This document shows positions 9,363 to 57,870 of a stretch of DNA of 64,000 bases, in pieces; position 1 is the first letter of the stretch, and each line of letters opens with the position of its first letter. This DNA comes from a bacterium (lineage in GTDB: Bacteria > JAAXHH01). The DNA lies in contig OZ241920.1 in the NCBI GenBank assembly GCA_965203885.1, positions 3,073,476 through 3,137,475 of the forward strand, written 5' to 3'. The position numbers and the translations under genes are program-made. The notes below the pieces were generated by a model that searched no databases, was not told the origin of the DNA, and worked only from the letters and a program-made list of their open reading frames with translations.

Positions 9363-9374
9363 TAAAGGGCATTC

Positions 9375-13497: not shown

Positions 13498-14279
13498 TGC
13501 GCAGCCGCCTCAGGGACCTGCTGAACGAAGGGAAGCCCGCCGTCGGCGCTCAGCTCCGGTTCGGCTCCCCCGCCGTCGCGGAACTGGCCGGACTGGCCGG
13601 TTTCGACTGGATCCTGATCGACACGGAGCACGCGCCCCAGACGCCGGTGACCGTGCAGGCGCAGGTCCAGGCCGCGTGCTGCACGCCGGCCACGCCGATC
13701 GTCCGGATCACCCGCACCGACCCCGACCTGATCAAGCTATACCTCGACATGGGCGCCATGGGGATCGTCGTCCCCTTCGTGAACACCCCGGAGGAAGCGA
13801 AGACCGGGGCGGACGCCTGCCGCTATCCCCCGCGCGGCACGCGGGGATGGGGGCCTCACCGCGCCGCGGGGTACGGCCTGTTCGAAGAGGAATACACCGC
13901 CGGGATCGACGACGCCGTGGTCTATCTCCCGATCATCGAGTCCGCCGAAGCGGTCGACCGTATCGACGCCATCATGGCCGTGGAGGGGGTGGACGGCTGT
14001 ATCGTGGGTCCGGTGGACCTGTGCATTTCCCTCGGAGTCCCCTTCCGGTTCGACCACCCGAAGTACCTCGACGCCCTCCGCCGCGTGCGGGAAGCCGGAC
14101 AGCGCGCGGGAAAGCCCGTGGGCCATCCCCTGCTCGGTCCCGTGGACGACGAGGAGAACGTGCGCAGGCAGGTGGAAGAAGGCGTGCGCCTGCTGCTCGT
14201 CGGAGGCGACGAGCCGGTCCTGAAGGACGGGTTCCGGCGGGCGGTCGAAGAACTGGCGTTCCTGCGCAGGGACGGATAG
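13494..14279 (+). CDS. HpcH/HpaI family aldolase (2-keto-3-deoxy sugar acid aldolase-like)
   Basis: 'FDWILIDTEHAP' and 'CRYPPRGTRG' (the conserved Arg-Gly aldolase motif); start overlaps the upstream stop (ATGATG at 13494), suggesting translational coupling. Confidence 0.8.
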   Translation: MMRSRLRDLLNEGKPAVGAQLRFGSPAVAELAGLAGFDWILIDTEHAPQTPVTVQAQVQAACCTPATPIVRITRTDPDLIKLYLDMGAMGIVVPFVNTPEEAKTGADACRYPPRGTRGWGPHRAAGYGLFEEEYTAGIDDAVVYLPIIESAEAVDRIDAIMAVEGVDGCIVGPVDLCISLGVPFRFDHPKYLDALRRVREAGQRAGKPVGHPLLGPVDDEENVRRQVEEGVRLLLVGGDEPVLKDGFRRAVEELAFLRRDG

Positions 14280-14339
14280 GATCGTCCGCCGCCCGACTCA
14301 TTCCGCCATAGCGTACGCGGCCGTCCGCCGCGGCCCGCG

Positions 14340-15338
14340 TTAAGCCTGATCCTTCGGTTTACGGACGATCATGGCCTGGCTCACCGTGGACAGCCCCAGC
14401 AGCATGGCCGCCAGATCGATCAGGCAGCTTACCGACTTGGTAATGAAGTTTTCGTAGCTGATCAGGCTGTACATGAATCCGGTCGAACCGGGCGCGTGGG
14501 GTTCCATGCCCAGCTTGATGCGGAGACTCCCGGGCCAGTGGCTCGCTTCGACGATGGCGCCGTGGGATTCTATCTCCAGGCCGCATCCGCTTACGCAGGC
14601 CGCGAGGGCCTTGCGGGAGAACAGGTGGAAGTGCCTGGGGATACTCAGCGCCATCCAGTGGTTCCGGAAGAAGTAACGGGATAACCCGTGCAGGTCGGGC
14701 GTCTCGAGATACAACACGCCTCCCGGCACGAGATGGTCCGAAATCCACCGGACCAGCCGGCCGGGATCGGTCACGTGCTCGATGACCTGCTGGCAGATGA
14801 CGGCATCGAACCGTTCCCCGCATTGCACGTCCTCGATCGGGCCTTCCATGAGGGTCACGCCGCGGCCGGAAAGGTAGGACCGGGCTTCCGGCTCGAACTT
14901 GAGGTCGTTGGCGAAGAGTTCGAGAGGAAAAGGGGCGAGTTCCGCCAGATAGGCGAGATTGCCGCCGAATCCCGCGCCGATATCGAGCACCCGGGAACCG
15001 GCCCGGAGATTCGCGATCACTTTCCGGATCCATCCCCGGTCGAGCACGTTGAGCTTCAGCCACCTTAAGGGGGCGAAGGCGGGGTACTCGATTTCCGTGA
15101 CGCGCACAATGTAGTCGCGGGGATAGATGCGGTCTATGTCCGCCATCCGGACCCTCGGCGACAGGTACACGTGTCCGCAATCCGCGCACGCGACGAACCG
15201 GAACCGGTTGTCGCAGGTGCGGTACTCGAAGTCGTATCCCTCGAAGACCGGCCGCGGCTGCGTCTCGGCGCTTCCGCACATCGCGCAGGCGACCGGCACA
15301 AGTTCCAGTATATGACCAGAACCGATTTTACTATCCAT
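14340..15338 (-). CDS. class I SAM-dependent methyltransferase with N-terminal Cys4 zinc-ribbon (sugar C-methyltransferase-like)
   Basis: 'CAMCGS...CADCGHV' zinc ribbon followed by 'VLDIGAGFGG' motif I; start taken at the second Met of ORF 14340-15377. Confidence 0.75.
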   Translation of the reverse strand: MDSKIGSGHILELVPVACAMCGSAETQPRPVFEGYDFEYRTCDNRFRFVACADCGHVYLSPRVRMADIDRIYPRDYIVRVTEIEYPAFAPLRWLKLNVLDRGWIRKVIANLRAGSRVLDIGAGFGGNLAYLAELAPFPLELFANDLKFEPEARSYLSGRGVTLMEGPIEDVQCGERFDAVICQQVIEHVTDPGRLVRWISDHLVPGGVLYLETPDLHGLSRYFFRNHWMALSIPRHFHLFSRKALAACVSGCGLEIESHGAIVEASHWPGSLRIKLGMEPHAPGSTGFMYSLISYENFITKSVSCLIDLAAMLLGLSTVSQAMIVRKPKDQA

Positions 15339-15389
15339 ACAACTCCGTCTGTTCCAGATACCTGGATCTACAGTCAAGACGACCTGATC

Positions 15390-16262
15390 TCATCCCGGTT
15401 TTTTGCAGAGTATATACAGTCCCATGGCCACTTCGTGAGCGCGTTCGTTCTTTACCAGAACGTAGTCTGCAAACTTGAATGGCCACAGCAGCACAAGGGG
15501 CACAAGCCTGAAAAGACCGTTAACGTATCGGTTGTTTGAGAACGAAAAAAGTTCGAACCAGTCAGCTGCAATTGCTGTGAAAGCGGATCCAGGACCGACA
15601 CATACGCCTTTCTCAACTACCTTGTACTTATCAAACAGAATCTTCAGGCCTTCGATTGTGTACCGTTGAAAGTCATTTGGATATGCATGAAAATGTGCTA
15701 TGAATGGTAGTTCCGTATAGACATACCCTCCTGGTTTCAACACACGAAACATTTCATCAACCACACGATTCGGATCCCTCACGTGCTCCAGCACAGCAGT
15801 ATTGTATATTAGTTTGAAGGTGTTGTCTTCGAAGGGAATCTCTAATGCGGAAGCGACGACATCCACATTTTCAAACCGATCGATATCGAGATTAACCTGA
15901 TTAGTGGCAGATGCAGTGGTTCCTGAACCTACTACAAGTCTTAACTCTTCCTCGTATTTCGACCAGATTTCTGCAACACGAGGGGTAATCGGCAGGTGTA
16001 AGGTACTTCCGATACCTTTCTTTAGTACGTTAAGGCACTTTTCCAACAATCCCGTTTTGAACTCCGACCGCATTTGATCGGCTTTCTCGAAATCGTAATG
16101 CAAACGCTGATGTTCGGCTTCCTCCAGAAGGACCGGTACCTCATCTATCACTGGGAATCTGTGATCTGAATCCCGACAAGCAAAGAGGTCGTTCGATATT
16201 CTGGTCAGATTACCGTGACACCTCGGACACCGGAGAAGGTGCTCGAATCGTTCGAGATTCAT
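15390..16262 (-). CDS. SAM-dependent methyltransferase (Methyltransf_11-like) with N-terminal Trm112-like zinc ribbon; lower GC than neighbours
   Basis: 'LLRCPRCHGNL...FACRDSDHRFPVIDEVPVLL' Trm112-like; 'LEHVRDPNRVVDEMFRVLKPGGYVY' motif post-II; visibly lower GC than the adjacent methyltransferase. Confidence 0.75.
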   Translation of the reverse strand: MNLERFEHLLRCPRCHGNLTRISNDLFACRDSDHRFPVIDEVPVLLEEAEHQRLHYDFEKADQMRSEFKTGLLEKCLNVLKKGIGSTLHLPITPRVAEIWSKYEEELRLVVGSGTTASATNQVNLDIDRFENVDVVASALEIPFEDNTFKLIYNTAVLEHVRDPNRVVDEMFRVLKPGGYVYTELPFIAHFHAYPNDFQRYTIEGLKILFDKYKVVEKGVCVGPGSAFTAIAADWFELFSFSNNRYVNGLFRLVPLVLLWPFKFADYVLVKNERAHEVAMGLYILCKKPG

Positions 16263-28510: not shown

Positions 28511-29770
28511 TCAGACGATCAGCATGGCGTCGCCATAGCTGTAGAACCGGTATCTCTCCCTGACCGCTTCCTCGTAAGCGGAAAGGATCAGCTCCCTTCC
28601 CGCGAAGGCGCTCACCAGCAGCAGGAGCGTCGACTTCGGGAGATGGAAATTGGTCAGCAGCGCGTCGACGAGCCGGAATTCGAAAGGGGGATAGATGAAA
28701 CACCGGGTGCGGCCCTCGTACCGGCGCGGTTCGAGTACGGGACCGGCCGGTCCGGCGCCACGAGGCGCTCCATCGGCGCCACCGGCCGCGATGGTCTCAA
28801 GTGCGCGCACGGTCGTGGTCCCCACGGCGACCACGCGCCCCCTGCTCCGCCTTCCCAGAATCGCTTCCGCTTCGTGGGCCTCCATGCGGTAGTATTCCGC
28901 GTCCATTTCGTGGTCCTCCACGGCATCGGAACGGATGGGCTGGAACGTGCCCGGTCCGACGTGGAGCAGGACCGGCACCACGGCCGTGCCCCGCGACCGG
29001 ATGCGGTCCAGCAGGGGCGCCGTGAAATGCAGTCCGGCCGTGGGCGCGGCCACGGCGCCGTATTCCTCCGCGTAGACCGTCTGGTAACGGTCCCGGTCGG
29101 ACGCGTCCGGATCGCGGCGAATGTAGGGGGGCAGCGGCGTGCGGCCCACCCGCTCGATGACCCGGAAAACTTCCGCGTCCCCCTCGAAACGGACCTGTCG
29201 TATATCCGGACCGGGCTCGTCCTCCACGACGGCGGCCAGCGCGCCGTCCTCCAGTTCGATGCGCGTCCCCCTGGCGAGCCGTGCGCCCGGCTTCAGCAGC
29301 GCTTCCCAGCGGGCGGGCGACGCCTCGTCCACCGGCCCTGTTTCGCCGACCGGCCCTGCGTCGTCCACCGGCGCCGCTTCGCCCGCCGATCCTGCCTCGT
29401 CGACCGGGCGGACCAGCACGACTTCGACCTTCCCGCCGGTTTCCGGCCGCGTGCCCAGCAGCCTGGCCGGCATCACCCGCGTCCGGTTGAGCACCAGCGT
29501 GTCGGCCGGGGCCAGGTAGTCCGCAATATCACGGAACGTCCGGTGTTCGATCGCCCCGCCGCGCCGGTGCACCACCATCAGCCGGGACGCGTCGCGGGGT
29601 TCGGCGGGGTACTGGGCGATCAGGTCTTCCGGCAGGGTATAGTCGTATTCGGCTAGATTCACGGATGATCGCAAGGTCTGCTGCGCGGAACGCTCCGGGC
29701 GGCCGTCACTCAAACGCTCCGGGCGGCCGCCATGCTCATATCGGCCGGGAACGCTCCGGACGGCCGTCAC
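28511..29770 (-). CDS. queA: S-adenosylmethionine:tRNA ribosyltransferase-isomerase (true start probably internal)
   Basis: '[29 protein letters not shown]', '[10 protein letters not shown]'; contains a Pro/Ala/Gly-rich low-complexity insertion. Confidence 0.85.
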
Positions 29771-30801
29771 TCGAACAGGCCGGCCTGCGGCTTCGTGTTC
29801 GCGGTGAACCCCAGGTGCCCGTACGCCAGCTCGGTGGCCACCCTGCCCCGGGGCGTGCGATTGATCAGGCCCTGGACGATGAGGTAGGGCTCGTACACCT
29901 CCTCGAGCGTTCCGCTCTCCTCGCCCACGGCCACGGCCAGCGTGTTCAGGCCCACGGGGCCGCCCGCGTATTTCTCGATGACGGTCGTGAGGATCAGCCG
30001 GTTCATGTCGTCCAGGCCCATGTGGTCCACGCCCAGCATTTCGAAGGCGGCCTTCGCGGTCTCCCCGTCGATGCGGCCGTCCCCCTTGACCTGGGCGTAG
30101 TCCCGCACCCGCTTCAGGTACCGGTTGGCGATGCGGGGCGTTCCCCGGGACCGCCGGGCGATCTCCATCGCTCCGCCGTCATCGGCCTCCACGCCGATGA
30201 TCTCGGCCGCCCGGTTGACGATCAGGAAGAGTTCCTCCGGCGTGTAGAAATCGAGTCGGATGGGGATGCCGAAACGCGCCAGGAGCGGCGCCGTCAGAAG
30301 GCCCGTGCGCGTCGTCGCGCCGACCAGGGTGAACCGGTCCAGGGTGAGGGACAGGGATCGGGCGCTCGGTCCCCGGTCCACCAGGATGTCGATCTTGAAA
30401 TCCTCCATGGCGGCGTACATGTGCTCTTCCACGACGTTGTTCAGCCGGTGGATCTCGTCGATGAAGAACACGTCTCCCGGCTGCAGGTTGGTCAGGAGTC
30501 CCGCCAGGTCGGCCGGCCGTTCCAGCACCGGTCCCGCGGTCTGCCGGATCTCCACGCCCATCTCATTGGCCAGAATGGTGGCCAGCGTGGTCTTGCCCAG
30601 TCCGGGCGGTCCGTGAAGCAGCACGTGGTCGATGTGGTTCTCGCCGCGGGTCTTCGCCGCCTCGATATACAGCTCCAGCTCCGCCTTGGCCTTTTCCTGG
30701 CCGGGGAATTCATCGAACCGGCCCGGCCTCAGCGCGCGGTCGAACTCCGTATCCTCGTCAAACCGGTCGGGGTCGGTCAACGGGTAGTCCCGCTCGTCCA
30801 T
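29767..30801 (-). CDS. ruvB: Holliday junction branch migration ATPase RuvB
   Basis: '[12 protein letters not shown]' Walker A, conserved RuvB. Confidence 0.95.
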
Positions 30802-31410
30802 CTACTGCCCTCCCTGGTTCCGCAGGACCAGACGAATGATCTCCGCCGCCGCGGGGGTTTCCGCGCTTTCGGACATCACCCGGACGACCTGCCGGCGCGC
30901 TTCCGGGTGATCGTAGCCCAGGGCCACCAGGCCCATGATCGCGTCGTCCGCTTCGGGCGCCTCGCCCGACGGCGCCACGGGAAGGGTCTCCGCTCTGCCG
31001 GTATCCATGGAAGCCAGCTTGTCGCGCAGTTCCATGATCAGCCGCTGCGCGGTCTTCCGGCCGATCTTGGGCAGCGAGACCAGCTTGCCGACGTCTTCGT
31101 TGATGATCGCCGCGGTGAACTCGGCGACCGTCGCCCCCGAGAGGATGTTCAGGGCCACGCCGGGCCCTATGCCGGGCAGGGTGATCAGCACTTCGAAAAG
31201 CCGCTTCTCGTCCACGGTCGCGAAGCCGTAGAGCTGCATGCCGTCTTCCCGCGCGTGCAGCACGGTTTCCACGCGCACGTGGGAACGGGGCGGACCCAGG
31301 GCCTGGTAGGTGGAAAGGGGGACGTCCACGTACAGGCCGATCCCGCCGACGGACACCGTGATGCCCTCGGGCTGCTTGTCGACCAGTTCACCTTCGACGA
31401 ATGCGATCAA
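30802..31410 (-). CDS. ruvA: Holliday junction DNA helicase subunit RuvA
   Basis: 'MIAFVEGEL' N-terminus, 'LPGIGPGVALNILS' HhH. Confidence 0.92.
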   Translation of the reverse strand: MIAFVEGELVDKQPEGITVSVGGIGLYVDVPLSTYQALGPPRSHVRVETVLHAREDGMQLYGFATVDEKRLFEVLITLPGIGPGVALNILSGATVAEFTAAIINEDVGKLVSLPKIGRKTAQRLIMELRDKLASMDTGRAETLPVAPSGEAPEADDAIMGLVALGYDHPEARRQVVRVMSESAETPAAAEIIRLVLRNQGGQ

Positions 31411-31906
31411 CCGCCTGGATCCTTCCGGTTATCCTGTGATAGTGACAGATGGCGACCGCCAGCGCGTCCGATGCGTCTTCCGGTATGGGTTTACGATCGG
31501 GGCTTCGGTCGAGGTTCAGCATGGCGCTGACCATGTACTGCACCTGCTGCTTCGACGCGCCGCCCGCGCGGACTATGGCCATCTTCACCTCGCGCGGGGC
31601 GTATTCCCAGACCTGCAGTCCCCGGTTCGCCGCGGCCAGGAGGGCGACCCCGCGGGCGTGGCCCAGCACGAGGGCCGCCCTCGGAAACCGTCCGCCGAAA
31701 GTGGATTCGACGGCCACCAACTCCGGCCGGGTCCGGTCGATGACCTCGCACAGGCCGTCGTAGATGACCTTCAGCCGGTCCGGAAGGGCCTTTCGCGACC
31801 CGGTCCGCACCACGCCGAAGTCCAGGAGCCTGCACTGCCTGTCCCGGGCCTCGATCACGCCGTATCCCGTAATCACGCTGCCCGGGTCGATTCCGAGGAT
31901 GATCAT
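31388..31906 (-). CDS. ruvC: crossover junction endodeoxyribonuclease RuvC
   Basis: 'MIILGIDPGSVITGYGVIE' canonical RuvC. Confidence 0.92.
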   Translation of the reverse strand: MIILGIDPGSVITGYGVIEARDRQCRLLDFGVVRTGSRKALPDRLKVIYDGLCEVIDRTRPELVAVESTFGGRFPRAALVLGHARGVALLAAANRGLQVWEYAPREVKMAIVRAGGASKQQVQYMVSAMLNLDRSPDRKPIPEDASDALAVAICHYHRITGRIQAVDRIRRR

Positions 31907-31915
31907 GGATACCCG

Positions 31916-32665
31916 CTACCCGTTCATCTCCTCCAGCATCCGGTCGTCCACGTCGAAATTGGCGTAGACGTGCTGAACGTCGTCGTGGTCCTCGAGGACT
32001 TCCATCAACCGGAGAAGCTGTTCCGCGTCCTTGCCCGCGACCGCCACGGTGGACTGCGGGATGCGGCCGATCCCGGCCCGCAGGGGGGCGAACCCGCCTT
32101 CCTCGAGCCGGACCCGCACCGATTCGAAATCGGAAACGGCGGTCAGCACGTCCAGGGTATCTCCTTCGTCCAGGATGTCTTCCGCGCCGGCGTCGAGGGC
32201 GGCCATCATGACCACGTCCTCGTCGACCCCGCTCTTGTCCACGACGATCGTGCCCTTCTGGTCGAACATCCAGGCCACGCAGCCCGCCTCGCCCATGTTG
32301 CCGCCGTTCTTCGTGAAGGCATGGCGCATCTCGGAGGTGGTGCGGTTCTTGTTGTCCGTCACCGCTTCCACCAGCAGCGCCACGCCGGCCGGGCCGTATC
32401 CCTCGTAGACCAGTTCCTCGTAGTGGACGCCGTCCAGCTCGCCCGTGCCCCGCGCTATGGCCCGGTCGATGTTGGCCTGCGGCACGTTTTCCGCCTTGGC
32501 GGCGAGCACGGCCGTCCTCAGCCGGGGGTTGCCGCTGGCCGAACCGCCGCCCTGCCGCGCGGCGATGGTGATCTCCTTGATGACCCGGGTGAATATCTTC
32601 CCGCGGGCGGCGTCTTTCTGCTCCTTCTTCCGCTTGATCGTGCTCCACTTGGAATGCCCGGACAC
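31916..32665 (-). CDS. yebC: YebC/PmpR family DNA-binding transcriptional regulator
   Basis: 'MSGHSKWSTIKRKKEQKDAARGKIF' canonical YebC N-terminus. Confidence 0.92.
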   Translation of the reverse strand: MSGHSKWSTIKRKKEQKDAARGKIFTRVIKEITIAARQGGGSASGNPRLRTAVLAAKAENVPQANIDRAIARGTGELDGVHYEELVYEGYGPAGVALLVEAVTDNKNRTTSEMRHAFTKNGGNMGEAGCVAWMFDQKGTIVVDKSGVDEDVVMMAALDAGAEDILDEGDTLDVLTAVSDFESVRVRLEEGGFAPLRAGIGRIPQSTVAVAGKDAEQLLRLMEVLEDHDDVQHVYANFDVDDRMLEEMNG

Positions 32666-32674
32666 CGTGCCTCC

Positions 32675-35029
32675 TCAGGGGATCGTGACGACCCGTTTCC
32701 CCGTACCCGTGTTATTGGATGTGTCCCTGGCGCGAATGGCGAGAGTATGCTCGCCGGCTTCCAGTCCGTCCAGGGCGATCTCGAATGCCTCCGTCTTGGA
32801 ATCCGTGACGCCGTCCCCGGGGTGGACCACCCGCCAGTCGCCCCCGTCAATGGCGTATTCCACGCGGTAAAGGGGACTGGCGCCGTCCTGGACCATGAAG
32901 GAAAGCCGGCCGGCCGTCACGTCGATCCGGGTTACCCGCGGACCGGTATTGTCCACCAGGAACGGCTCGCTGAGGCGTTCCGACTCCAGGGCCTGGTCCG
33001 GCGGATTCGACGGCCCGTCGCTGGCCACGACGCGGACGACGTATGTTCCGTCCGGGAAAGTCTCGGAATCCCAGGAATAGGAAGGGGTGCGCCGTTCCGA
33101 CTCCAGGAGCTTCCACGCTTCTTCCGCTTCGCCCCGGAAGTAGATCTCGAAGGACAGTCCGTCCCCGTCGGGATCGCTCGCCTGAACGGCGATCGCCCGC
33201 ATGCCCTTCCGGTAGGCGGGCGCGCCGGCCGACGCGTTCTGGCCGCGGCCGTTGGCGCGGCCGCCGACCTGCGCGGCGATGCCCGGGGGAAGATCGGACG
33301 GCCCGTCCGGACCCGGCGCGGCGTCACGCAGGTAGACGCCCGGCTCGTAGACCGTGACCGAATGCACGGTGGGCGGATTGTTCCGCGTCAGGTACGCCGC
33401 CGAAACGGACGAGACCGAGGGCGTTTCCCCGTTCCCCGTACTCAGCTCCGCCTTCCACTGCAGGTAGCGGGCGGGCGGGCAGGCCAGGGCCTCCCCATCC
33501 GGATCCGTATAGGGACCGGTCCAGTCGCTCCAGGTCTGGTCGGGCGTATCCGTATTGCCCGAGCGGGCGTACAGGCGGACCGCCGTCCCCTCGGGCTGCT
33601 CGGTCTCCCACCGGATACGGCCCCACCGCGCAATGCCCCGGGTATCCCGGACGTCGGACGTGTACTCGCCTTCGCGCACGGGACGGGAGCTCAGGCGGTA
33701 CAGGTTGCCGCGATTGCTCGTCGCCACGGCTATCCCGCCCGTTGCGAGGGGCATCAGCGCCGTGATCTGCGATTCCTCGAGTTCGTTCAGCAGCGTGCCC
33801 CGGCCCCGTTCCCGGACGCTGTAGAGCCGGCCGCGCGAGCCCGTGCCGATGAGCAGCTCATCTTCCCCGCGTAGCGCCAGAGACAGGCATACGTCCGTCC
33901 CGGACCGCCACCATTCCTCCACCCGGCCGTCCGGATCTATCCTGAGGACGACGCCGCCGCCCGTGGCGAAACCACGGCCGGCAGGCCGGTCCGCGCTCTC
34001 CGCCGAGGCCGCCGCCTCGACCACGTTACGGACCGCGTCGCCGCCCGGCTCGTCGGGAGCCCGGGACGGCGGGGGCATCGATCCGCCCGGCCGGCCGGCC
34101 CGGCGCGGTCCGCTCAGCGCGCCGGCGAACACGGCGCCGTCCGAAGCGACCTGGAGGGCGTTCACTTCGCCGTAGGGTGAATCGTACAGGACCGAAAGGG
34201 CGCCGTCAGAAGCGATCCGGTAGATCCGGCCGCCCGGCTCGGTGCCCGCGATCAGCCGGCCCGATCCGTCCACGGCCAGGGCCATGACATGGGCTTCCTC
34301 CAGCTCGGCCAGCAGACGCGCATCGCCGTCCGCGTCGATACGATATATCCTTCCCTGCTCGCCCGTGCCCGCGTACAGCCCGCCTTCCGCGTCCAGCGCA
34401 AGCGACCAGATGTAGCGGGTCGCGCCGTCCGCGTTGCCGTCCGTGCTGCCATCGTCCTGCGCGCCGCCTTCGTCCTCCGCACCGCCGTCGTCCGCGCCGC
34501 CGTCGTCCGCCGCGTCGCCATCGCCGGCCGTTCCGCTACCGTCCTCCCCGCCGTCATCGCCGGCCGCGCCGCCATCGCGCGCGGGATCGAAAAACACCGT
34601 GTGGGTCCCGTCCGCGTCGATCCGGTAGATCCGGCCGTCGGGGAAAGTGGCGGCGTAGACCCGGTCGTTCCCGTCGATCGCCACGCTGCGGATTTCCAGC
34701 TCTTCGGCGTCAAAGAACACCTCGGACCGGCCCGACGAGTCTATACGGTACAGCCTGCCGTCGTTCCCCGTGCCCGCGTAGAGGTTCCCCCCGGAATCGG
34801 CCGCGAGGCTCCATATCAGCGGTTCGTCGCTCTCGAAAACGGGGTCCAGGACCGGCGACAGCGTCAGGCGGCCCTTCCCGGTTATGGAAACGTCCCGGGA
34901 CTCGCCCTTGAGGAAATCTCCGTGTCCGGCCTGTTTCCAGATTACCGGCGTCGACGCAACGACGCCGAACACGGCCATCAGCAAGACCGATGCCATGAGC
35001 GGCGCGCGCCATCGCGGGATCCTGTTCAA
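32675..35029 (-). CDS. large secreted/anchored repeat protein: N-terminal signal anchor, ~6-8 'DG(R)IYRID' blade-like repeats (beta-propeller) interrupted by acidic Gly/Asp-rich inserts, C-terminal Ig/FN3-like beta-sandwich domains
   Basis: 'GNDGRLYRIDSSG', 'DGRIYRIDADG', 'QGRIYRIDADG', 'GGRIYRIASDG' repeats; 'DGGEDGSGTAGDGDAADDGGADDGGAEDEGGAQDDGSTDGNADG' insert; C-terminal 'SDPDGDGLSFEIYF...' sandwich-like region. Confidence 0.6.
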   Translation of the reverse strand: MNRIPRWRAPLMASVLLMAVFGVVASTPVIWKQAGHGDFLKGESRDVSITGKGRLTLSPVLDPVFESDEPLIWSLAADSGGNLYAGTGNDGRLYRIDSSGRSEVFFDAEELEIRSVAIDGNDRVYAATFPDGRIYRIDADGTHTVFFDPARDGGAAGDDGGEDGSGTAGDGDAADDGGADDGGAEDEGGAQDDGSTDGNADGATRYIWSLALDAEGGLYAGTGEQGRIYRIDADGDARLLAELEEAHVMALAVDGSGRLIAGTEPGGRIYRIASDGALSVLYDSPYGEVNALQVASDGAVFAGALSGPRRAGRPGGSMPPPSRAPDEPGGDAVRNVVEAAASAESADRPAGRGFATGGGVVLRIDPDGRVEEWWRSGTDVCLSLALRGEDELLIGTGSRGRLYSVRERGRGTLLNELEESQITALMPLATGGIAVATSNRGNLYRLSSRPVREGEYTSDVRDTRGIARWGRIRWETEQPEGTAVRLYARSGNTDTPDQTWSDWTGPYTDPDGEALACPPARYLQWKAELSTGNGETPSVSSVSAAYLTRNNPPTVHSVTVYEPGVYLRDAAPGPDGPSDLPPGIAAQVGGRANGRGQNASAGAPAYRKGMRAIAVQASDPDGDGLSFEIYFRGEAEEAWKLLESERRTPSYSWDSETFPDGTYVVRVVASDGPSNPPDQALESERLSEPFLVDNTGPRVTRIDVTAGRLSFMVQDGASPLYRVEYAIDGGDWRVVHPGDGVTDSKTEAFEIALDGLEAGEHTLAIRARDTSNNTGTGKRVVTIP

Positions 35030-35038
35030 ATGCAGCTC

Positions 35039-37102
35039 CTATCGCTTTACGGTCAGCCTGCTCCAGTGCTGCCCGGCGACGACGTAGTCCGTCCGGACCG
35101 TTTCTTCGGCAACCACCTTCTCGCGGATCGGTATGAAACTGCCCTTCGTCCGCTCGGAATCCATGACGGCGAGGACCGACGGGGGCAGACCGGGCATCTC
35201 CCTCCCTTTGAGCATGCCGCCCGCGCCGCCCTGGAACATCTTCAGGTATATCCGGTTTCCGGTGCGGCGGTTGTTGAGCAGTTCGATCAGCCGGGGGCCG
35301 TCCGTGGGCCTGTACCGCTGGGGAACGGCGTTCAGATCGTGGCGGGTTACGGCCCGGGAGGAACCGACCAGTACCTGCACCTGCCCGGCGGATATGGTCT
35401 TGGGGACCGTCACGTCGAACCGCTTGACCACGCGGCCGCCCCGGTAGGGCCGGAGGTACACCCTGACCTCCAGCGTGTCCCCCGGTTTCAGGGTATCCGA
35501 TCCGAACCAGACGTCTTCGATGACGGCCGTCCGGCGTTCGTCCGACGAATGGAGCTCGATCCGGAGGGACTCTATCATCGGGGTCACGAACCGGTTGTCG
35601 AGCACGAAATTGAGCACGCCGTTCACGTCTCTGGCCAGGGCCGGCAGGGACGCCCGTCCGGAGAACTGGTCGTCGAAGACCACGTCCGGATGGTCCCGCA
35701 GTTCGATCCGGCCGCCGAGCGTTATCGTCCGCTCACCGGACGCGCGGCCGTTCGCGAAGATCGTATTCGTCACCGCCATGTTTACCAGCATCGGCGTCCA
35801 GCCGTTCGCCATCATCACGTCGAACCGGTAGTTCCGGGGCGCGCGGCCGGCATCGACGTAGGAAAGCTCAACCGGTATCATAGGCGCCGTATCGCCGAGC
35901 TGGCCGTATATCCCGTTCGTGTGGTCCCACAGGACCGAACCGACTTCGTCCGTCACGCTGCCGACTTTCGTGGACCCGGTCTGGTCCGGGACGACCGTGA
36001 TGATCTCGGCCCGGTTCATCGGGATGTTCAGGGCGCCGGTCCATAGGAAGGGATGTCCGAAGGCCAGAATGGCGTCTTCATCGCGCCAGGTGACCGTACC
36101 CGTGCCCGCCATATTGTAATCGCCCCGGATGAGCTGCGCGCTCACGGCGGCGCCGGGTTCCAGGGCGGCTTTCCCGCCGCTCGACGACGCGCCGTCCTGT
36201 TCCGGGACCGCAGCATCGCCGGCCTGTACGGGGTCCGAAACCGCGCCTGCCGAAACCGCGCCGGACGGCCCGACGCCCCGGCTGCCTCCGCCGGCCACGG
36301 GAACGAGCCCTCGCCGGCGCAGGTCGCGCTCGAACAGGCTGACCGTCATGGGATGGAAACCGGAAAGCACCATGGGCACGGCAATGGGCTTGAGGCCGGA
36401 CGGACCCGAAGGGGTGCCCGGATGTCCGGCGAACTCCGTTTCCGAACGGTCTTCGGCTGGCCAGGGGGATGGGGGACCGGCGCCCGTGCCGCCCGGTTCG
36501 CCCAGCCAACCCGATCCGCCAGGCCAACCCGGCCCGTAATCACTCTGGAGGTCTCCCGGTCCGCCCGGCCCGTAATCACTCTGGAGGTCTCCCGGTCCGC
36601 CTGGTCCGCCCGGCCCGTAATCACCGCTGGGCCCGCCCGTCCCGTCCCGGTCTCCGCTGGGGGCGTTCCGGTCCGGCGCCGGTTCGGTCTCCACGGCATC
36701 CCGTATGGCCAGCATATGGCCGATCGGCGTAACGCCGCCGATGGGTTTCATCGGAAACGCGCCGAAGCGGTACGCCAGCGCGCCGACGAGTTTCCCGTCG
36801 ATGTACACCGGGCTGCCGCTCATCCCCGCGATGACCCCCGCGTCGTCCACGTAGGGGCCCGAAACCCCCACCATGATGATATCGTGTTTCGCGTAGAAGA
36901 TGTTCTTCATGACGCCCAGCACTTCGATGTGGAAGGTATCGATCCGGGCATCCTGGAAGACCGTGAGGCCGTATCCGCGCATGCCCGGCCGCACCTCGTC
37001 GATATCCATGAACCCGGAGGCGGACTGGGCCGCTGCCGGCACGCCGGGCGCGAGCAGGCATGCGAAGAGGGAAAGCGCGACGACCGTTCGATTGATGTGC
37101 AT
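35039..37102 (-). CDS. SpoIVB-like peptidase S55 family serine protease, secreted, with Gly/Pro-rich repeat insertion
   Basis: Signal peptide 'MHINRTVVALSLFACLLAPGVPAAAQSA'; 'IAGMSGSPVYIDGKLVGALAYRFG' matches the S55 catalytic-Ser motif (GMSGSPxxxxGKLxGA); 'DYGPGGPGDLQSDYGPGGPGDLQSDYGPGWPGG' insert encoded by a 36-bp direct repeat (~36520-36600). Confidence 0.65.
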   Translation of the reverse strand: MHINRTVVALSLFACLLAPGVPAAAQSASGFMDIDEVRPGMRGYGLTVFQDARIDTFHIEVLGVMKNIFYAKHDIIMVGVSGPYVDDAGVIAGMSGSPVYIDGKLVGALAYRFGAFPMKPIGGVTPIGHMLAIRDAVETEPAPDRNAPSGDRDGTGGPSGDYGPGGPGGPGDLQSDYGPGGPGDLQSDYGPGWPGGSGWLGEPGGTGAGPPSPWPAEDRSETEFAGHPGTPSGPSGLKPIAVPMVLSGFHPMTVSLFERDLRRRGLVPVAGGGSRGVGPSGAVSAGAVSDPVQAGDAAVPEQDGASSSGGKAALEPGAAVSAQLIRGDYNMAGTGTVTWRDEDAILAFGHPFLWTGALNIPMNRAEIITVVPDQTGSTKVGSVTDEVGSVLWDHTNGIYGQLGDTAPMIPVELSYVDAGRAPRNYRFDVMMANGWTPMLVNMAVTNTIFANGRASGERTITLGGRIELRDHPDVVFDDQFSGRASLPALARDVNGVLNFVLDNRFVTPMIESLRIELHSSDERRTAVIEDVWFGSDTLKPGDTLEVRVYLRPYRGGRVVKRFDVTVPKTISAGQVQVLVGSSRAVTRHDLNAVPQRYRPTDGPRLIELLNNRRTGNRIYLKMFQGGAGGMLKGREMPGLPPSVLAVMDSERTKGSFIPIREKVVAEETVRTDYVVAGQHWSRLTVKR

Positions 37103-37382
37103 GGGGCCGCTGCCTGGTGAACAGGGGATCGGGAGGCGACTTGAAACTACTGCAATATAAGGCCGCACCGCGTGCGTGGGCAACTGCTTTGTAACGGCCG
37201 CCGAAGGATCGCGGGGCAGCCGTTAACAAAAGAAATCGCTTGACTTACCGCGATGGTTCCTCGAAATTCAGACGGCGGCGGAAGGGTCCGGAAGAGCAGG
37301 TACGGCGCCGGTCCCGGCCCGTCCTGATACCTGTCCTGAAACCAGTCCGGAAACCTGAATCCGGAAACCTGTCAGGAGCGTC

Positions 37383-38366
37383 ATGAAACGTCCCGGGCAC
37401 GAAAAGCCCTCCGATGAGAACGTGGTGCCGATCTGCAACATGACCATGTCCGAAACGCGCAGCCAGATCGGCGCGCTGTCCTCCCAGATCGTACAGTCCT
37501 ACGACACGATCGGCGGCCTGAACCGTATCGACGGCAAGAACCTGCCTTCCAGGGAACGGGTCTACGGCATGCTGAAGGACCTGCTTGCGCTCTGCTTCCC
37601 CGGATACTTCGGCGCCGAACCCCTCGTGACGAAGAACGTGGCCTTCTACGTGGACGGACTGGTGGACGACATCTACATCCGCCTGAGAGAGGAAGTGACC
37701 CGGAGCCTCATGCACGACGCGCAGTGCAAGGGGAAAGACCCCGTGGCCTGCGAGGAGATCGCAAACCGGATCGCGCTCGAGCTCCTCGAGGCGGTCCCCG
37801 GCATCCGGAAGCTGCTCATGGGCGACGTGGAGGCTGCCTACGACGGCGATCCCGCGGCCAAGAGCCATGACGAGATCATCCTGAGCTATCCGTGCGTGGA
37901 AGCCATCGCCACCTACCGGATCGCCCATGAACTCTATCTCCGGAAGACGCCGCTCATTCCGCGGATCATGTCCGAGCACGCCCACAGCCGCACGGGGATC
38001 GACATCCACCCCGGCGCGACCATCGGCACCCGATTCTTCATCGACCACGGTACGGGCGTCGTGATCGGGGAGACGGCGCTGATCGGCAACAACGTGAAAC
38101 TATACCAGGGCGTGACGCTGGGCGCGCTGAGCTTCCGGAAGGACGAAGGCGGCCGTCTCGTCAAGGGCGGCAAGCGCCACCCCACCATAGAAGACGACGT
38201 GGTGATCTACTCGGGCGCCACGATCCTGGGCGGTGAAACGACGATCGGGCACGACTCCGTGATCGGGGCCAGCGTATGGTTGACGGAACCGGTCCCGCCC
38301 CATTCGAAGGTTACCATCGGCAACCCGAAGCTGGACGTGGTGAAACACGACGCCCGGACGGCCTGA
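37383..38366 (+). CDS. cysE: serine O-acetyltransferase with extended N-terminus (true start may be internal, e.g. 37440)
   Basis: 'DIHPGATIGTRFFIDHGTGVVIGETALIGNNVKLYQGVTLG' hexapeptide-repeat SAT core. Confidence 0.85.
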   Translation: MKRPGHEKPSDENVVPICNMTMSETRSQIGALSSQIVQSYDTIGGLNRIDGKNLPSRERVYGMLKDLLALCFPGYFGAEPLVTKNVAFYVDGLVDDIYIRLREEVTRSLMHDAQCKGKDPVACEEIANRIALELLEAVPGIRKLLMGDVEAAYDGDPAAKSHDEIILSYPCVEAIATYRIAHELYLRKTPLIPRIMSEHAHSRTGIDIHPGATIGTRFFIDHGTGVVIGETALIGNNVKLYQGVTLGALSFRKDEGGRLVKGGKRHPTIEDDVVIYSGATILGGETTIGHDSVIGASVWLTEPVPPHSKVTIGNPKLDVVKHDARTA

Positions 38367-39412: not shown

Positions 39413-41008
39413 CTATTCGATCCGCTTGATGATGTGAAAACCCATGGACGTCTCGACGACCGCGCTCAGTTCACCGACTTGCAGTCCCATCGCGGCCCGC
39501 TCGAATTCCGGGATCATCTCGCCCGGACCGAAGAACCCGAGGTCGCCTCCGACGTTCCGGCTCGAATCGATGGAGGTCTCCCGGGCCAGTTCGACAAAAT
39601 CGGCGCCGGCCTCCAGCCGTTCCATCACGGCCTGCGCTTCCGCCTGCGTGGCGACGACGATCTGGCGGACGCGTATCTTGTTGGATTCGATGGCCTTCGT
39701 CCTCTCCTCCACGACCCGCCTGACCCGGCTCAACGCGGCCTTCAGCGGCGCGTTTTCCGGCGCGAGGGCGAGGGCCTGTTCGTACTGGGCAATCGCCTGG
39801 CCGAATTCTTCCCGCCGTTCGTGTATCATGGCGGTTTCCGCGTAAATGCGGGGGTCTCTCGCGCCCATTTCGAGTATCTCCCCGTAGTACTCCAGGGCAT
39901 CGGAAAAGCGGCCTTCGGCGAAGGCGAGGCGGGCCAGCGCCACGCGCGGAACCACCGACTGCCCGCCGACCTCCAGGGCCCGTTCCCAGACCGCGCGCGT
40001 GCTGTCCGGCTGGTCCTTGTTCTGGTAGGCGGTCCCCAGGTTCATGTAGGCGTCCATGTAGTCCGGCGCGAGTTCGACGGCCCGCTTCCATTCCACGATC
40101 GCGTCGTCGACCCGATCCATGTTCAAGTATGAAACGCCGAGATTGAGATGGATCCTGGGCAACTGGTCTTCCGGGGGAGACAGGGTGAGCACCTTCTCGT
40201 AGGTATCGGCCGCCTTTTCGAATTCCTCGGTATCGGTATATACCTTGCCGAGATTCGTGTAGGCGTCGACGTAGGAGGAATCGTCCTCGATGGCCTGCCG
40301 GTAGTGGTGGATCGCTTCGTCGAGATACCCGCCCTGGTTGTACACGAACGCCATGGCGGTATGGGCCGCGGCCAGTTCCGGCGGCCCCTCCATCATCCTG
40401 TCGTACTGGGTCCGGGCCCAGGCGTAGACCGTATCGGTGGGAACGATCGTCATGCGCGCGATGCTGAGCGTATCGCCCTCCACGGTCTTCTTGAACGCAT
40501 CCAGCGCCGCGTTCATGTCCCCCCTGGCGTGATGTACCAGGCCGAGCGTAAGGTAGGCGGCGGCAAAGCCTGGCGCGACCTCCAGGGCGTGTTCGATATG
40601 GACCTGGGCGCTGTCGATCTCTCCCTGCGCATAGTACACGGCGCCCAGGTTGTTCTTCGCGAGGGCGACGGCGGCCAGGAACTGCTGCAGCGCCGCCTGC
40701 TGCCGCTGCTCGGGCGTCAGGGTGGTGTCCGGTTCCGCGCCTTCCCCGGCGGCCGCGCCGGACTGGCCGACCGGGATCAATCCGGCGGGCGCGGGGGTCT
40801 GCTGCGCATCGGTCCCGGCAGAAGTCTGGGTCTCGGCTTCGGTAGACGCCTGGGCGCCGGCCTCGGCAGAAGTCTGCGTATCGGCCTCGGCAGACGTCTG
40901 GGCGCCGGCCGGAGCAACCCAGAATATGCAGAGAAAAAGGACGCTAAGGGCCGGCGTCAGGACCGTACGAAACGGTGCGCCGCCCCGTGCATGGTTGCTT
41001 AAGCTCAT
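39413..41008 (-). CDS. secreted TPR-repeat protein fused to a C-terminal PpiC-type (parvulin) peptidyl-prolyl isomerase domain
   Basis: Signal/TM 'ALSVLFLCIFWVAPAGAQ'; 'TSAEA(D/G/E)TQ' repeats; multiple TPR-like helices; C-terminal 'GGDLGFFGPGEMIPEFERAAMGLQVGELSAVVETSMGFHIIKR' parvulin signature. Confidence 0.75.
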   Translation of the reverse strand: MSLSNHARGGAPFRTVLTPALSVLFLCIFWVAPAGAQTSAEADTQTSAEAGAQASTEAETQTSAGTDAQQTPAPAGLIPVGQSGAAAGEGAEPDTTLTPEQRQQAALQQFLAAVALAKNNLGAVYYAQGEIDSAQVHIEHALEVAPGFAAAYLTLGLVHHARGDMNAALDAFKKTVEGDTLSIARMTIVPTDTVYAWARTQYDRMMEGPPELAAAHTAMAFVYNQGGYLDEAIHHYRQAIEDDSSYVDAYTNLGKVYTDTEEFEKAADTYEKVLTLSPPEDQLPRIHLNLGVSYLNMDRVDDAIVEWKRAVELAPDYMDAYMNLGTAYQNKDQPDSTRAVWERALEVGGQSVVPRVALARLAFAEGRFSDALEYYGEILEMGARDPRIYAETAMIHERREEFGQAIAQYEQALALAPENAPLKAALSRVRRVVEERTKAIESNKIRVRQIVVATQAEAQAVMERLEAGADFVELARETSIDSSRNVGGDLGFFGPGEMIPEFERAAMGLQVGELSAVVETSMGFHIIKRIE

Positions 41009-41041
41009 ATGCCACCGCCTTCCGGTATGGATCACTATATC

Positions 41042-41193
41042 GGTCCCGCGCTTCATCTCAGCGGCTCCGCGTCTCTTCTGGTCCCGCGCTTCGTCTCAGC
41101 GGCTCCGCGTCTCATCTGGACCCGCGCTTCCTCTCAACGGCTCCGCGTCTCTTCTGGTTCCCCGCTTCGTCTCAACGGCTCCGCGTCTCCTCA
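41042..41193. repeat. 38-bp direct tandem repeat x4 (ggtcccgcgcttcgtctcagcggctccgcgtctc(t/a)tct-like)
   Basis: Four units starting at 41042, 41080, 41118, 41156 read directly; no unique spacers between units. Confidence 0.9.
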
Positions 41194-49375: not shown

Positions 49376-49495
49376 TCCCCCGGCAGCGTCCTACTCTCCC
49401 ACAAGGTCACCCAAGCAGTACCATCGGCGCAAGAGGGCTTAACTACTCTGTTCGGAATGGGAAGAGGTGTTTCCCCTCCGCTATCGCCACCGGAA
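49376..49495 (-). rRNA. rrf: 5S ribosomal RNA
   Basis: Reverse complement aligns to bacterial 5S (e.g. 'ggcagcgtcctactctccc', 'accatcggcgc'); boundaries +/-5 nt. Confidence 0.9.
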
Positions 49496-49546
49496 GAAAT
49501 GGGGTGCAATTACAAGGAATGAGAGAACGACGACGTATCATGGAGC

Positions 49547-52615
<3,069 letters not shown>

Positions 52616-52750
52616 AACAAATGCTACTGTGCTTGAGTGCTCCGATGTTACAACGCCGTTCCCGTCATTCCTATGTAATTGTCAAAGAGCGGGCGCCGTC
52701 TTCGTCGTGCTGGCCGTACCGGTCGTACTGGTCCTGCCGACGGTGCCCCA

Positions 52751-52826
52751 GTGGAGATAACCGGGATCGAACCGGTGACCTCCGGCTTGCAAAGCCGGCG
52801 CTCTCCCAGCTGAGCTATATCCCCGG
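52751..52826 (-). tRNA. tRNA-Ala (anticodon TGC)
   Basis: Reverse complement 'ggggatatagctcagctgggagagcgccggctttgcaagccggaggtcaccggttcgatcccggttatctcca'; anticodon loop cTTTGCAa. Confidence 0.93.
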
Positions 52827-52833
52827 CTTTCGG

Positions 52834-52911
<78 letters not shown>

Positions 52912-52998
52912 CCGTTGCTTCAGGCCCCCCCGCTCCAAAAAACATGACAGCGTGCACGCCGTTCGCCGGACAAGTCGACCTCGAGTTGCGATAACTCT

Positions 52999-54555
<1,557 letters not shown>

Positions 54556-54869
54556 ATAAAAGAAAAGTCCAATCTTGAATTGCATCTGTGTGAACCCCCC
54601 GGACGGATCCGGAGAGCCCTTGCCAGACGACTAGGACATGCACGCTGCCATGTTTTCAAAGAGCGTAATCTTACCGCAACCCGCGCAAGATACACAGCCG
54701 GGTATATGAAGTCAACAGGTTTCTTTATTTTTAATTCCTGTTGACCAAACAGCCGTCGTACAGCGGGATTCGGGCCCGAAACGGGGGTCCGAACCTGGGG
54801 CGGCAAACCGCGTTCCTCGCCGGGATTGCGCGGCCGGTTCGGGCCGATCAGGGGCCCCGCCGGGAGGCG

Positions 54870-55892
54870 CTATCCGGGCACGCTTCCGAGGGGCTCGATC
54901 GACAACAATCCGCTGCCGTTTGCAGGGTGCGAATCGTTGCCCTGTCCGGGGTGCGCGGCGGCCTGGTGCGAGCCGTTCCTGTTCGTCCCGTGTGCCCCGC
55001 CGGATCCCGAAGGCGCCCCGCCGCCGACGCTGTCCGCCTGGTCGGCCGCGTGGTAGGAGCTGCGGACCAGGGGGCCGGACTCCACGTGGGGGATGCCGTA
55101 CGCCTCGCCCGCCTGCTTGAACCGGGCGAATTCGTCCGGGTGATAGTGCTTGCGCACCGGCAGGTGCTTCTTCGTCGGCTGCAGGTACTGACCCACCGTC
55201 AGGATGTCGCTTTTCACCGCGGCCACGTCGCGCATCAGGGCGTGGACGGCTTCGTCCGTCTCGCCGAGCCCCACCATGATGCCCGTCTTCGTCTTCGCGC
55301 CGCGGGCCTTCGCGCGCTCGAGCAGTTCCAGGGACTGGTCGTACCGCGCCTGGGGCCGCACGGTCCGGTACAGGTCCGGCACCGTCTCCAGGTTGTGGTT
55401 CAGCAGGTCGGGACGGGCGTCAAGCACAGTCTGGAGCGCCGCTTCCGATCCCTTGAAATCGGGGATGAGCACTTCCACGCCCACGCCCGGGCACCGGCGG
55501 CGGATGGCCCGGATCGTCTCGGCGAAGATGGGCGCGCCGCCGTCCGCCCGCTCGTCTCGGTTGACCGAGGTGATCACGGCGAACCGCAGGCCCAGCTTCT
55601 CCACGGCGCCGGCCACGCGCTCAGGCTCGTCCCAGTCCAGCCCCTTGTCCGGCCGGCCCGTCTTCACCGCGCAGAACCCGCAGCTGCGCGTGCAGATGTC
55701 GCCCAGGATCATGAAGGTGGCGGTCCGCTGCTCCCAGCATTCCCAGATATTCGGGCACTGGGCGCTCTCGCAGATGGTGTGGAGCCGGTTGTCCCCGACC
55801 AGGCGCTTCAGCTCCCGGAAGTTCGGCCCCTGCTTCAGGCGCACCTTGAGCCACGGGGGCTTGGGCACGTGGGATGTGGTCGATTCGCTCAT
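54870..55892 (-). CDS. lipA: lipoyl synthase with ~50-aa low-complexity C-terminal extension
   Basis: '[13 protein letters not shown]' and 'CTRSCGFC' Fe-S cluster motifs; tail '[39 protein letters not shown]'. Confidence 0.9.
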
Positions 55893-56171
55893 GTTACCTT
55901 AACGGGTTCCGGCGATGCACGTACTCAATAGGCACCGCGAGACGATGCTTGCGGTTTGGAGCCAATGGTTCGGCGACGGGGCCAGCTTGAAATCCGGTTG
56001 GCCGGCATCACGCCTGCGCGGCCGGCATCCTGCCGCCATCAGGAACAAAAAGCGACCCTCCGGCAACGGGAACAGTGGTTCCGCGCCGGAGCGGCCGCCA
56101 TGGTTGTCAGGTTCTCTGCTTGCTCTTTGTTGTCCGGGTTACGGTCGAGGCCCGACCGGTTGTTTCGAGCC

Positions 56172-56666
56172 TCATCCAGGCTTCATTTCGGGCGCGCCGT
56201 CGTCCCCCGGCGAAATGACCACGGCCTCCTCGCCGAGATGGCCCGCGATGGTCTGCGACAACTCGTTCAGGTCGGTCCGGCAGAAACCCGTGTTGCTGTC
56301 CAGGATCCCGCCGCTGTCATCCATGAGGAACCACGTCGGCACGTTCGTCAGTCCGAAATCCGAGGAGGCCCAGTGGGTGGCGTCGTACACGTTCTCGAAG
56401 GTCGCGCCGTGCTCTTCCATGAACGCCCGCGTGTCCTCCGGCGTGTCCTGCGAGACGCCCACTACCCGGAATCCACCGTTGCCGCCGTAGGCCTGGTGGA
56501 TCTTCTCGAAATAGGGGGCGCTGAACTTGCAGGTCCCGCAGCCCACCTTGTAGAAGACCGCCAGCAGCCAGCCGCCGTCCGCCTGGTCGCCCAGCGACGT
56601 CGACTGTCCGTCCGCGTCTTCCAGCGTGACTTCCGGGGCCGCGACCCCGGCTTCCAGGAACGCCAT
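56172..56666 (-). CDS. thioredoxin-like thiol-disulfide oxidoreductase (TlpA/AhpC-TSA redoxin family)
   Basis: 'FYKVGCGTCKF' CxxC active site in a thioredoxin fold. Confidence 0.7.
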   Translation of the reverse strand: MAFLEAGVAAPEVTLEDADGQSTSLGDQADGGWLLAVFYKVGCGTCKFSAPYFEKIHQAYGGNGGFRVVGVSQDTPEDTRAFMEEHGATFENVYDATHWASSDFGLTNVPTWFLMDDSGGILDSNTGFCRTDLNELSQTIAGHLGEEAVVISPGDDGAPEMKPG

Positions 56667-57699: not shown

Positions 57700-57870
57700 T
57701 TCGCAGCTTGATGCGTTCTTCTCTCCCAGGCATTCGTCTATCCGTTTGATATCCCGCCAACGGCCTGGTTACTGTCGATCATATCCCTGCGCCATCAACA
57801 GTAAATCGTCGTTCTATTTTTGATCTTTGAGCCCGTTGAGTCGTCTTATTCTACGTAACGATTCGCTTTT

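Follow-up and report, generated by a model that had tools for sequence, protein, structure and literature searches.

A two-gene locus encoding an S55-family peptidase with domain halves in swapped order and a beta-propeller protein

The peptidase–propeller locus

We analysed a 64,000-nucleotide (nt) stretch of DNA from a bacterium of the GTDB lineage JAAXHH01 (assembly GCA_965203885.1, contig OZ241920.1, positions 3,073,476 to 3,137,475 of the forward strand), which is called the window below and from whose first letter all positions are counted. On its minus strand lie two adjacent genes, one for a peptidase of family S55, to which the Bacillus subtilis protease SpoIVB belongs, and one for a beta-propeller protein. 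Profile comparisons indicate that the S55 domain of the peptidase is circularly permuted and that both of its halves are homologous to S55. Across genomes, the propeller gene is rarely found without the peptidase gene; the peptidase gene can stand alone. The window represents ordinary chromosome, since it also carries ATP synthase, EF-G, a Mur ligase and an rRNA operon.

The peptidase gene (gene 1; 35039–37102, minus strand) runs from an ATG at 37102 to a TAG stop at 35041–35039 and encodes 687 amino acids (aa) plus the stop. The propeller gene (gene 2; 32675–35029, minus strand) follows after a gap of 9 nt, begins with a TTG at 35029 and encodes 784 aa. The original prediction, made from the sequence alone, had placed two large co-oriented reading frames, the propeller gene first, directly downstream of yebC. 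The two co-oriented frames were recovered, as was the size of the propeller protein, whereas the strand is minus, the peptidase gene comes first, the pair lies upstream of yebC and the 688 aa given for the peptidase counted the stop codon. Both proteins begin with an Arg-containing N-region and a hydrophobic stretch, which by inspection resemble a Sec signal.

At the gene junction (35030–35041, minus strand), the sequence reads as a TAG stop at 35041–35039 that overlaps an AGGAG at 35040–35036, followed after 6 nt by the TTG at 35029; this overlap of the stop with a putative ribosome-binding site is the layout that would be expected from translational coupling. A consensus scan located a promoter-like site at 37154–37183 (minus strand; TTGCCC, an 18-nt spacer and TATATT), about 50 nt 5' of the peptidase start, and the transcription unit probably begins there because the upstream neighbour (37383–38366) is divergent. 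A longer peptidase frame of 714 aa, with a TTG start at 37183, was rejected in favour of the ATG at 37102, since the N-termini of the homologues agree with the ATG. The plus-strand open reading frames (ORFs) antisense to this region, at 31310–33874, 34289–36046 and 36053–37120 (355–854 aa), were rejected as high-GC artefacts, and such artefacts also gave many spurious clusters in the neighbourhood analysis.

Downstream of the pair and on the same strand lie yebC, ruvC, ruvA, ruvB and queA (28511–32665, minus strand), which are co-directional and separated by gaps of at most 9 nt or overlap. The neighbours also include genes for a hexapeptide transferase, a TrxB-like reductase and a protein with tetratricopeptide repeats (TPR) and a PpiC domain. 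No sporulation gene was found among the neighbours, in line with the non-sporulation context suggested originally, and neither gene of the pair has a paralogue elsewhere in the window.

The peptidase and the order of its S55 domain

The assignment of the peptidase to S55, proposed at first from a catalytic motif, holds at the profile level. The native sequence matches the Pfam model PF05580 with 32.9 bits (gathering cut-off 25), over profile positions 126–194 of 210 and beginning directly after the signal peptide, and a precomputed PF05580 match is present in all 120 homologues listed. In a phmmer comparison with the SpoIVB structure 9LNF (E 1e-4), GMSGSP of the peptidase fell on the mutated active-site motif, and hhalign placed family residues 30–113 on the Ser half of SpoIVB (columns 106–192; 97.8%, E 9e-13). 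The match is not of the S1 trypsin type. In databases, these proteins are already annotated as containing an S55 domain.

The canonical S55 domains used for hhalign were rebuilt from the DNA of eight spoIVB–spo0A loci, several of which are frameshift-split; the spoIVB genes upstream of spo0A at loci L081, L082, L083, L084 and L086 are broken into two or three ORFs. Because spoIVB genes in these assemblies are split in this way, a protein-database search with a SpoIVB fragment returned just short gene fragments of 80–146 aa.

The peptidase is not a SpoIVB orthologue, since TIGR02860, the equivalog model of SpoIVB as the sigma-K checkpoint protease of sporulation, gives 27.3 bits against a cut-off of 305. 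The canonical spoIVB loci do carry a PDZ domain and spo0A, and the locus in the window adjoins yebC–ruvCAB instead. A PDZ domain upstream of the S55 motif, which the original prediction had proposed to look for, did not emerge: Pfam gave no PDZ match in the peptidase, and there is no room for the domain in the merely ~69 residues between the signal peptide and Ser95.

In SpoIVB, the His-bearing half of the peptidase domain precedes the Ser-bearing half, and in the peptidase of the window this order of the barrels is swapped. The Ser half comes first (residues 30–135; 36698–37015, minus strand), with six strands and a helix modelled at a predicted local distance difference test (pLDDT) score of 91–97, and it accounts for the match to PF05580 positions 126–194. 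The His half follows it (residues 312–417; 35852–36169, minus strand), contains RGD328, AFGH350PF and D393, and was recognised through PF05580 positions 12–97 and by hhalign, in which a second alignment placed query residues 330–404 on the His half of SpoIVB (11–100) in reversed order.

When the His and Ser halves of the window sequence were re-joined in the SpoIVB order, PF05580 gave one match over positions 12–194 of 210 (43.3 bits, E 6e-11), and a full-span match was likewise obtained after re-joining in 7 of 10 diverse members tested. The re-permuted family alignment aligned with SpoIVB by hhalign over 155 columns (98.9%, E 3e-17), and the score was 110.9 for the re-joined order vs 95.2 for the native order. 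This difference between native and re-joined profile matches is the hallmark of a circularly permuted S55 domain.

The His half was also evaluated on its own. Isolated His halves (residues 312–420) matched PF05580 positions 12–97 in 7 of 28 members, and no other family was matched by more than one of the 28. In hhalign, the His half alone scored 27.6 (P 6e-4), which is of moderate significance and was reached by none of 60 column shuffles, whose maximum was 18.2. The motifs of the permuted family also pair with those of SpoIVB: RGD..AGTGTVT with RDSAAGVGTLT, AFGH with ALGH, and GIYG with GIFG.

The residues expected to carry out catalysis are conserved. Ser95 lies in GMSGSP, within GMSGSPVYIDGKLVGALAYRFG at residues 93–114, is invariant in alignments of 38 and 108 homologues and aligns on the SpoIVB nucleophile Ser378. 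His350 (AFGHPF), about 255 residues after Ser95, aligns on His236 in the ALGH motif of SpoIVB and is likewise invariant in both alignments, as is Asp393; for Asp328, the alignment of 38 shows no exception and that of 108 a conservation of at least 90%. Among 128 sequences taken from independent loci, none deviates at His350, Asp328 or Asp393. As neither the nucleophile Ser nor the His varies, the peptidase does not appear to be a dead homologue and is likely to be an active enzyme.

The 43 residues between His350 and Asp393 approximate the His57–Asp102 spacing of chymotrypsin. Because Asp393 is invariant and has this chymotrypsin-like spacing from His350, it is likely to be the third residue of a Ser95–His350–Asp393 triad. 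The permuted family differs here from canonical SpoIVB, which has Asn at the aligned position (ERNTHFGIFG in L086, SKNTFYGIYG in L084). The structure 9LNF, reported in 2025 as the first S55 crystal structure, left the catalytic triad unclear, and its authors doubt Asp363 as a catalytic residue and propose Thr393 (PMC12502668). The Asn of canonical SpoIVB at the position of Asp393 may bear on this unusual triad.

The remainder of the peptidase was delineated from the AlphaFold model (pLDDT 80; predicted template modelling score, pTM, 0.78), in which each half is a six-stranded barrel at pLDDT >90. The model divides into a barrel with a helix (30–139), disordered segments (146–234 and 273–311), a second barrel (319–417) and a C-terminal fold (418–687). 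The putative Sec signal peptide, assigned by inspection only, comprises residues 1–26 (MHINRTVVALSLFACLLAPGVPAAAQ; 37025–37102, minus strand); it has the same shape and a varying sequence in homologues, and inspection of the N-terminus revealed no lipobox. The best 150 homologues are nearly all 555–721 aa long, the exceptions being two short fragments.

Between the barrels lie two disordered tethers and one ordered element, all on the minus strand. Tether 1 (residues 136–235; 36398–36697; pLDDT ~31–50) is 100 aa long here, compared with a family median of 45 and a minimum of 30, and includes DYGPGGPGDLQS, which is encoded by a 36-nt tandem repeat of 2.2 copies with 95% match at 36528–36608. 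The original prediction had noted a repeat insertion; the repeat is present, and it is a lineage-specific expansion of the tether rather than a functional insertion. A conserved beta-beta-alpha-beta element follows (residues 236–272; 36287–36397; pLDDT 88–94), with invariant P243, G248 and G265, which is too short for a PDZ domain. Tether 2 (residues 273–311; 36170–36286; pLDDT <50) has 39 aa here vs a median of 17.5. The total inter-barrel tether thus amounts to 176 aa, and to about 75 aa at the family medians (given as 45 + 17.5 around the 37-aa element).

The C-terminal region (residues 418–687; 35042–35851, minus strand) is modelled as alpha/beta and beta domains at pLDDT 83–97. Relatives of these ~270 aa were not found: Pfam gave no match, a Foldseek search of the PDB with the full protease model returned no hit at E ≤ 0.001, and nothing credible in the PDB matched a family profile built for this region, the best hit being a proteasome beta subunit at E 0.025.

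The propeller protein and its association with the peptidase

The N-terminal part of the propeller protein (residues ~29–450; 33680–34945, minus strand) forms a seven-bladed beta-propeller of the Reg_prop/SGL type according to Pfam, the structure model and Foldseek. Pfam scores were 37.7 bits for SGL, above its cut-off, and 31 bits for Reg_prop (PF07494) vs a cut-off of 20.4, and the DGRIYRID-like blade repeats noticed at the outset number seven. The model has an overall pLDDT of 85, with 28 blade strands at pLDDT >90, and generic seven-bladed propellers fit the propeller part well in Foldseek (TM-score 0.86 to a seven-bladed lyase).

Two loops of the propeller are modelled with low confidence. 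The first is the acidic Gly/Asp/Ala insert that the original prediction had pointed out (residues 153–205; 34415–34573, minus strand; pLDDT ~42). It comprises 53 aa (18 G, 14 D), coincides with an 18-nt repeat of 7.8 copies (34440–34577) and is lineage-specific, the family median being 1 aa. The second is a disordered loop in blade 5 (residues 309–355; 33965–34105, minus strand; pLDDT 28–38), which is present in all 93 homologues with 37–61 aa and a poorly conserved sequence, and which may serve as a lid or a cleavage site. The exported TPR and PpiC-type rotamase protein at 39413–41056 (minus strand), with its N-terminal low-complexity run AQTSAEADTQTSAEAGAQASTEAETQTSAGTDAQQ, is the third exported protein here to carry a low-complexity insertion of lineage type, the other two being the peptidase, in its tether, and the propeller protein, in its acidic loop.

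The propeller is followed by three beta-sandwich domains. The first of them (residues 453–567; 33329–33673, minus strand; pLDDT 93–98) is strongly conserved and contains the invariant motifs RSGNT..TWSDW and ARYLQW. The other two are immunoglobulin (Ig)-like (residues 604–690 and 691–784; 32678–33220, minus strand), as judged from the model and conserved columns. C-terminal Ig-like domains had been expected from the sequence, and the AlphaFold model is indeed all-beta there (pLDDT >90), whereas the Pfam and NCBIfam matches are sub-threshold only: Big_7 (E 0.042), Big_13 (E 0.056) and an OmpL47-type match (E 0.0014). By eye, domain 604–690 is Y_Y_Y-like (Y.Y.R..GE..W..L....WDT..VPDG.Y..RVVASD); the Y_Y_Y model (PF07495) itself was not matched by the protein. 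The protein ends at residue 784, and no transmembrane, kinase, receiver, catalytic or signalling domain was found in it. A type IX sorting domain (Por_Secre_tail) was not matched in NCBIfam or Pfam, the only hit being an insignificant one to PorU (E 0.046).

In Foldseek, the propeller protein best matched the ligand-binding, periplasmic sensor domains from Bacteroides hybrid two-component systems (HTCS), with E 3e-14 to 2e-11 and BT4663 and BT4673 at the top. Like these sensors (BT4663, BT4673 and BT3049; 4A2L/4A2M, 3OTT, 3VA6 and 3V9F), it joins a Reg_prop propeller to an Ig-like domain. Unlike them, it has one propeller rather than two (overall TM-score ~0.3), an extra conserved beta-sandwich and a second Ig-like domain, and no membrane-linked kinase or regulator.

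Conservation of the pair was examined from both sides. Clustered at 50% identity, the protease family comprises 6,340 cluster representatives at E ≤ 1e-3 and at least 1,863 at E ≤ 1e-30. Of 80 genome loci retrieved via the protease, 74 had enough downstream sequence, and a propeller gene lay downstream on the same strand at 36 of these, directly adjacent in 34. Paired loci occur in classes of Acidobacteriota, in Latescibacterota and in Zixibacteria. Conversely, a search via the propeller protein retrieved 80 metagenome loci at 32–54% identity, about 70 of them informative, and the protease gene lay immediately upstream on the same strand at 63, with gaps of 14–421 bp. Propeller loci without an upstream protease numbered three with at least 2 kb of upstream sequence and four with 0.8–1.8 kb. 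The co-conservation supposed in the original prediction is thus borne out in both directions, strongly from the side of the propeller gene and in about half of the loci from the side of the protease gene.

The surroundings of the pair are not conserved in the same way. No conserved third gene was found beside it, and the neighbours differ by lineage; the link to yebC–ruv is lineage-specific, being present at only one (L001) of the 80 genome loci and at 1 of the 80 metagenome loci. The closest relatives come from metagenome-assembled genomes that carry the labels Latescibacterota, with 82% identity and the synteny retained, and Gemmatimonadota. At the Terriglobia loci (L005, L006, L008, L021, L028 and others), the order is ychF, a ZIP metal transporter, one ORF and then the protease gene. 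This synteny, seen about 3.5 kb upstream of the protease gene, is conserved among these loci, and the cluster representative of the ORF next to the protease looked like an antisense artefact. Two pair-bearing loci, L018 and L046, are labelled Heliobacteriaceae and Acidimicrobiia, which looks out of place among the remaining carriers and may reflect binning errors.

Other features of the window were recorded alongside. The rRNA operon is complete (49378–54560, minus strand), with 16S, tRNA-Ile(GAT), tRNA-Ala(TGC), 23S and 5S. A 634-aa ORF at 57871–59775 (plus strand) has sigma-70 regions 2 and 4 of the extracytoplasmic function (ECF) type in its first ~185 residues, followed by a C-terminal extension of ~450 aa for which Pfam gave no match; its local GC is 0.55 vs ~0.67. 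GC is 0.49–0.59 at 1–2000, 6000–10000, 14000–16000 and 50000–60000 vs ~0.66 for the genome, and the low value at 50–54.5 kb is due to the rRNA operon.

A proposed two-protein proteolytic module and its alternatives

On balance, we lean towards reading the pair as a Sec-exported proteolytic module of two proteins, a protease and a binding partner that recruits or gates its substrates, most likely located in the periplasm. The product of gene 1 would be an active serine protease of the S55 family and chymotrypsin fold, with its two beta-barrels in swapped order. As in SpoIVB, the active site would be built where the two barrels meet, with the Ser95 barrel coming first in the chain and the His350 barrel after the tether, and an unrelated C-terminal region of ~270 aa would replace the PDZ domain of SpoIVB. 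The product of gene 2 would be non-catalytic and made in step with the protease; it would bind the protease and thereby recruit or gate substrates.

The permuted family resembles B. subtilis SpoIVB (MEROPS S55, PF05580, 9LNF) in being an exported serine protease with two beta-barrels and shared flanking motifs, and, in keeping with the 9LNF paper (PMC12502668), its catalysis apparently proceeds without Asp363. In contrast to SpoIVB, it has swapped barrels, no PDZ domain, a long tether and an extra C-terminal region, and it occurs in non-sporulating diderm phyla beside a propeller gene rather than spo0A.

An adaptor or gate of this kind would have functional parallels among other proteases. In tricorn protease and the prolyl oligopeptidases (S9), a propeller restricts access to the active site; there, the propeller and a catalytic domain of another fold share one chain, whereas here two polypeptides are encoded and the gating is hypothetical. 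Prc–NlpI of Escherichia coli and CtpA–LbcA of Pseudomonas aeruginosa (PMC11021448) likewise combine an exported serine protease with a non-catalytic repeat protein, which is a functional analogy only. They are not homologous to the present pair, the proteases being S41 enzymes with a PDZ domain and the adaptors being TPR lipoproteins that deliver substrates.

Several observations weigh against the proposed module. The adaptor role is drawn by analogy only, from Prc–NlpI, CtpA–LbcA and the propeller-gated peptidases, and neither fusion proteins nor any other direct indication of a physical interaction came to light. At 38 of the 74 protease loci, mostly from Pyrinomonadaceae and Acidobacteriaceae, no propeller gene lies within 3.4–10 kb downstream (10 kb where the contig permitted), so the protease does not strictly need an adjacent partner. 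In the active site, Asp363 of the triad first proposed for SpoIVB corresponds to a near-invariant Gly82 and Thr393 to Ala/Ser110, and thus neither residue is conserved here. Finally, the isolated His half is weak by itself (hhalign probability 28%, Pfam E 0.006–0.23), and 9LNF was not found in a PDB-wide sequence search with either a His-half query (phmmer) or the family profile.

The main rival to the module is that the propeller protein is a dedicated substrate, which the protease would cleave, for example in loop 309–355, to mature, release or activate it. Adjacency of the genes would be equally expected in that case, every propeller homologue has the disordered loop of 37–61 aa, and cleavage of specific partner proteins is also how SpoIVB itself acts (for background, see PMC12502668). 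However, the loop is so poorly conserved that no cleavage motif is visible, and because half of the protease loci are unpaired, the protease would have to have other substrates as well. We consider a dedicated substrate unlikely, though it is the alternative to be taken most seriously.

It is still less probable that the two proteins act independently and owe their adjacency to shared regulation or inherited operon structure. The unpaired protease loci would agree with this, as would the flanks, which are unrelated housekeeping genes varying by lineage (yebC–ruvCAB here, ychF and the ZIP transporter in Terriglobia). Yet 63 of the ~70 informative propeller loci preserve the order and strand at 32–54% identity, the pair is retained across several phyla while its remaining neighbours change, and the intergenic gaps are short or overlapping.

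Least probable is that the second barrel resembles the S55 His half only spuriously or through convergence, leaving a partial S55 domain beside an unrelated barrel in a protein that may not be a working protease. The single matches of the His half do lie below significance, 9LNF was not matched, and no protease emerged from the PDB at E ≤ 0.001 when Foldseek was given the complete model. However, PF05580 is the sole recurrent family and is always matched at 12–97 and collinearly, placing the His half in the SpoIVB order lifts the Pfam match from 32.9 bits to one continuous stretch of 43.3 bits, the hhalign score exceeds 60 of 60 shuffles, the aligned His is invariant, the motifs correspond one-to-one, and the Foldseek result is expected because a permuted multi-domain chain defeats sequential alignment.

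Relative to the literature that we found, the permutation and the conserved partner of the module are new, and the S55 label itself is not. Apart from the proteomic detection of an S55 peptidase in the Fervidibacter metaproteome (PMC11535203), no account of S55 proteases that are permuted or lie outside sporulation turned up in our literature search, and none of a conserved propeller partner of S55 or of an S55 function outside sporulation. Permuted S55 proteins are under-annotated because sequence profiles see one third of the domain, and most such proteins in soil and sediment phyla are labelled hypothetical.

S55 is known almost only from one signalling protease of sporulation, and the larger non-sporulation branch offers a natural comparison for its catalysis. 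The conserved two-gene unit, in turn, is a testable candidate for an envelope protease system in abundant, poorly studied soil and sediment phyla. More tentatively, the pair could represent an unrecognised envelope proteolytic system of Acidobacteriota, Gemmatimonadota/Latescibacterota, Zixibacteria and related phyla, in which a permuted S55 protease with a Ser95–His350–Asp393 triad works only with its propeller/Ig adaptor or gate. If this were true, the tether between the barrels might be self-cleaved to give a two-chain enzyme, S55 would be a broad periplasmic family rather than an invention of sporulation, and SpoIVB would have branched off from it with re-ordered barrels and a PDZ domain, losing the Asp.

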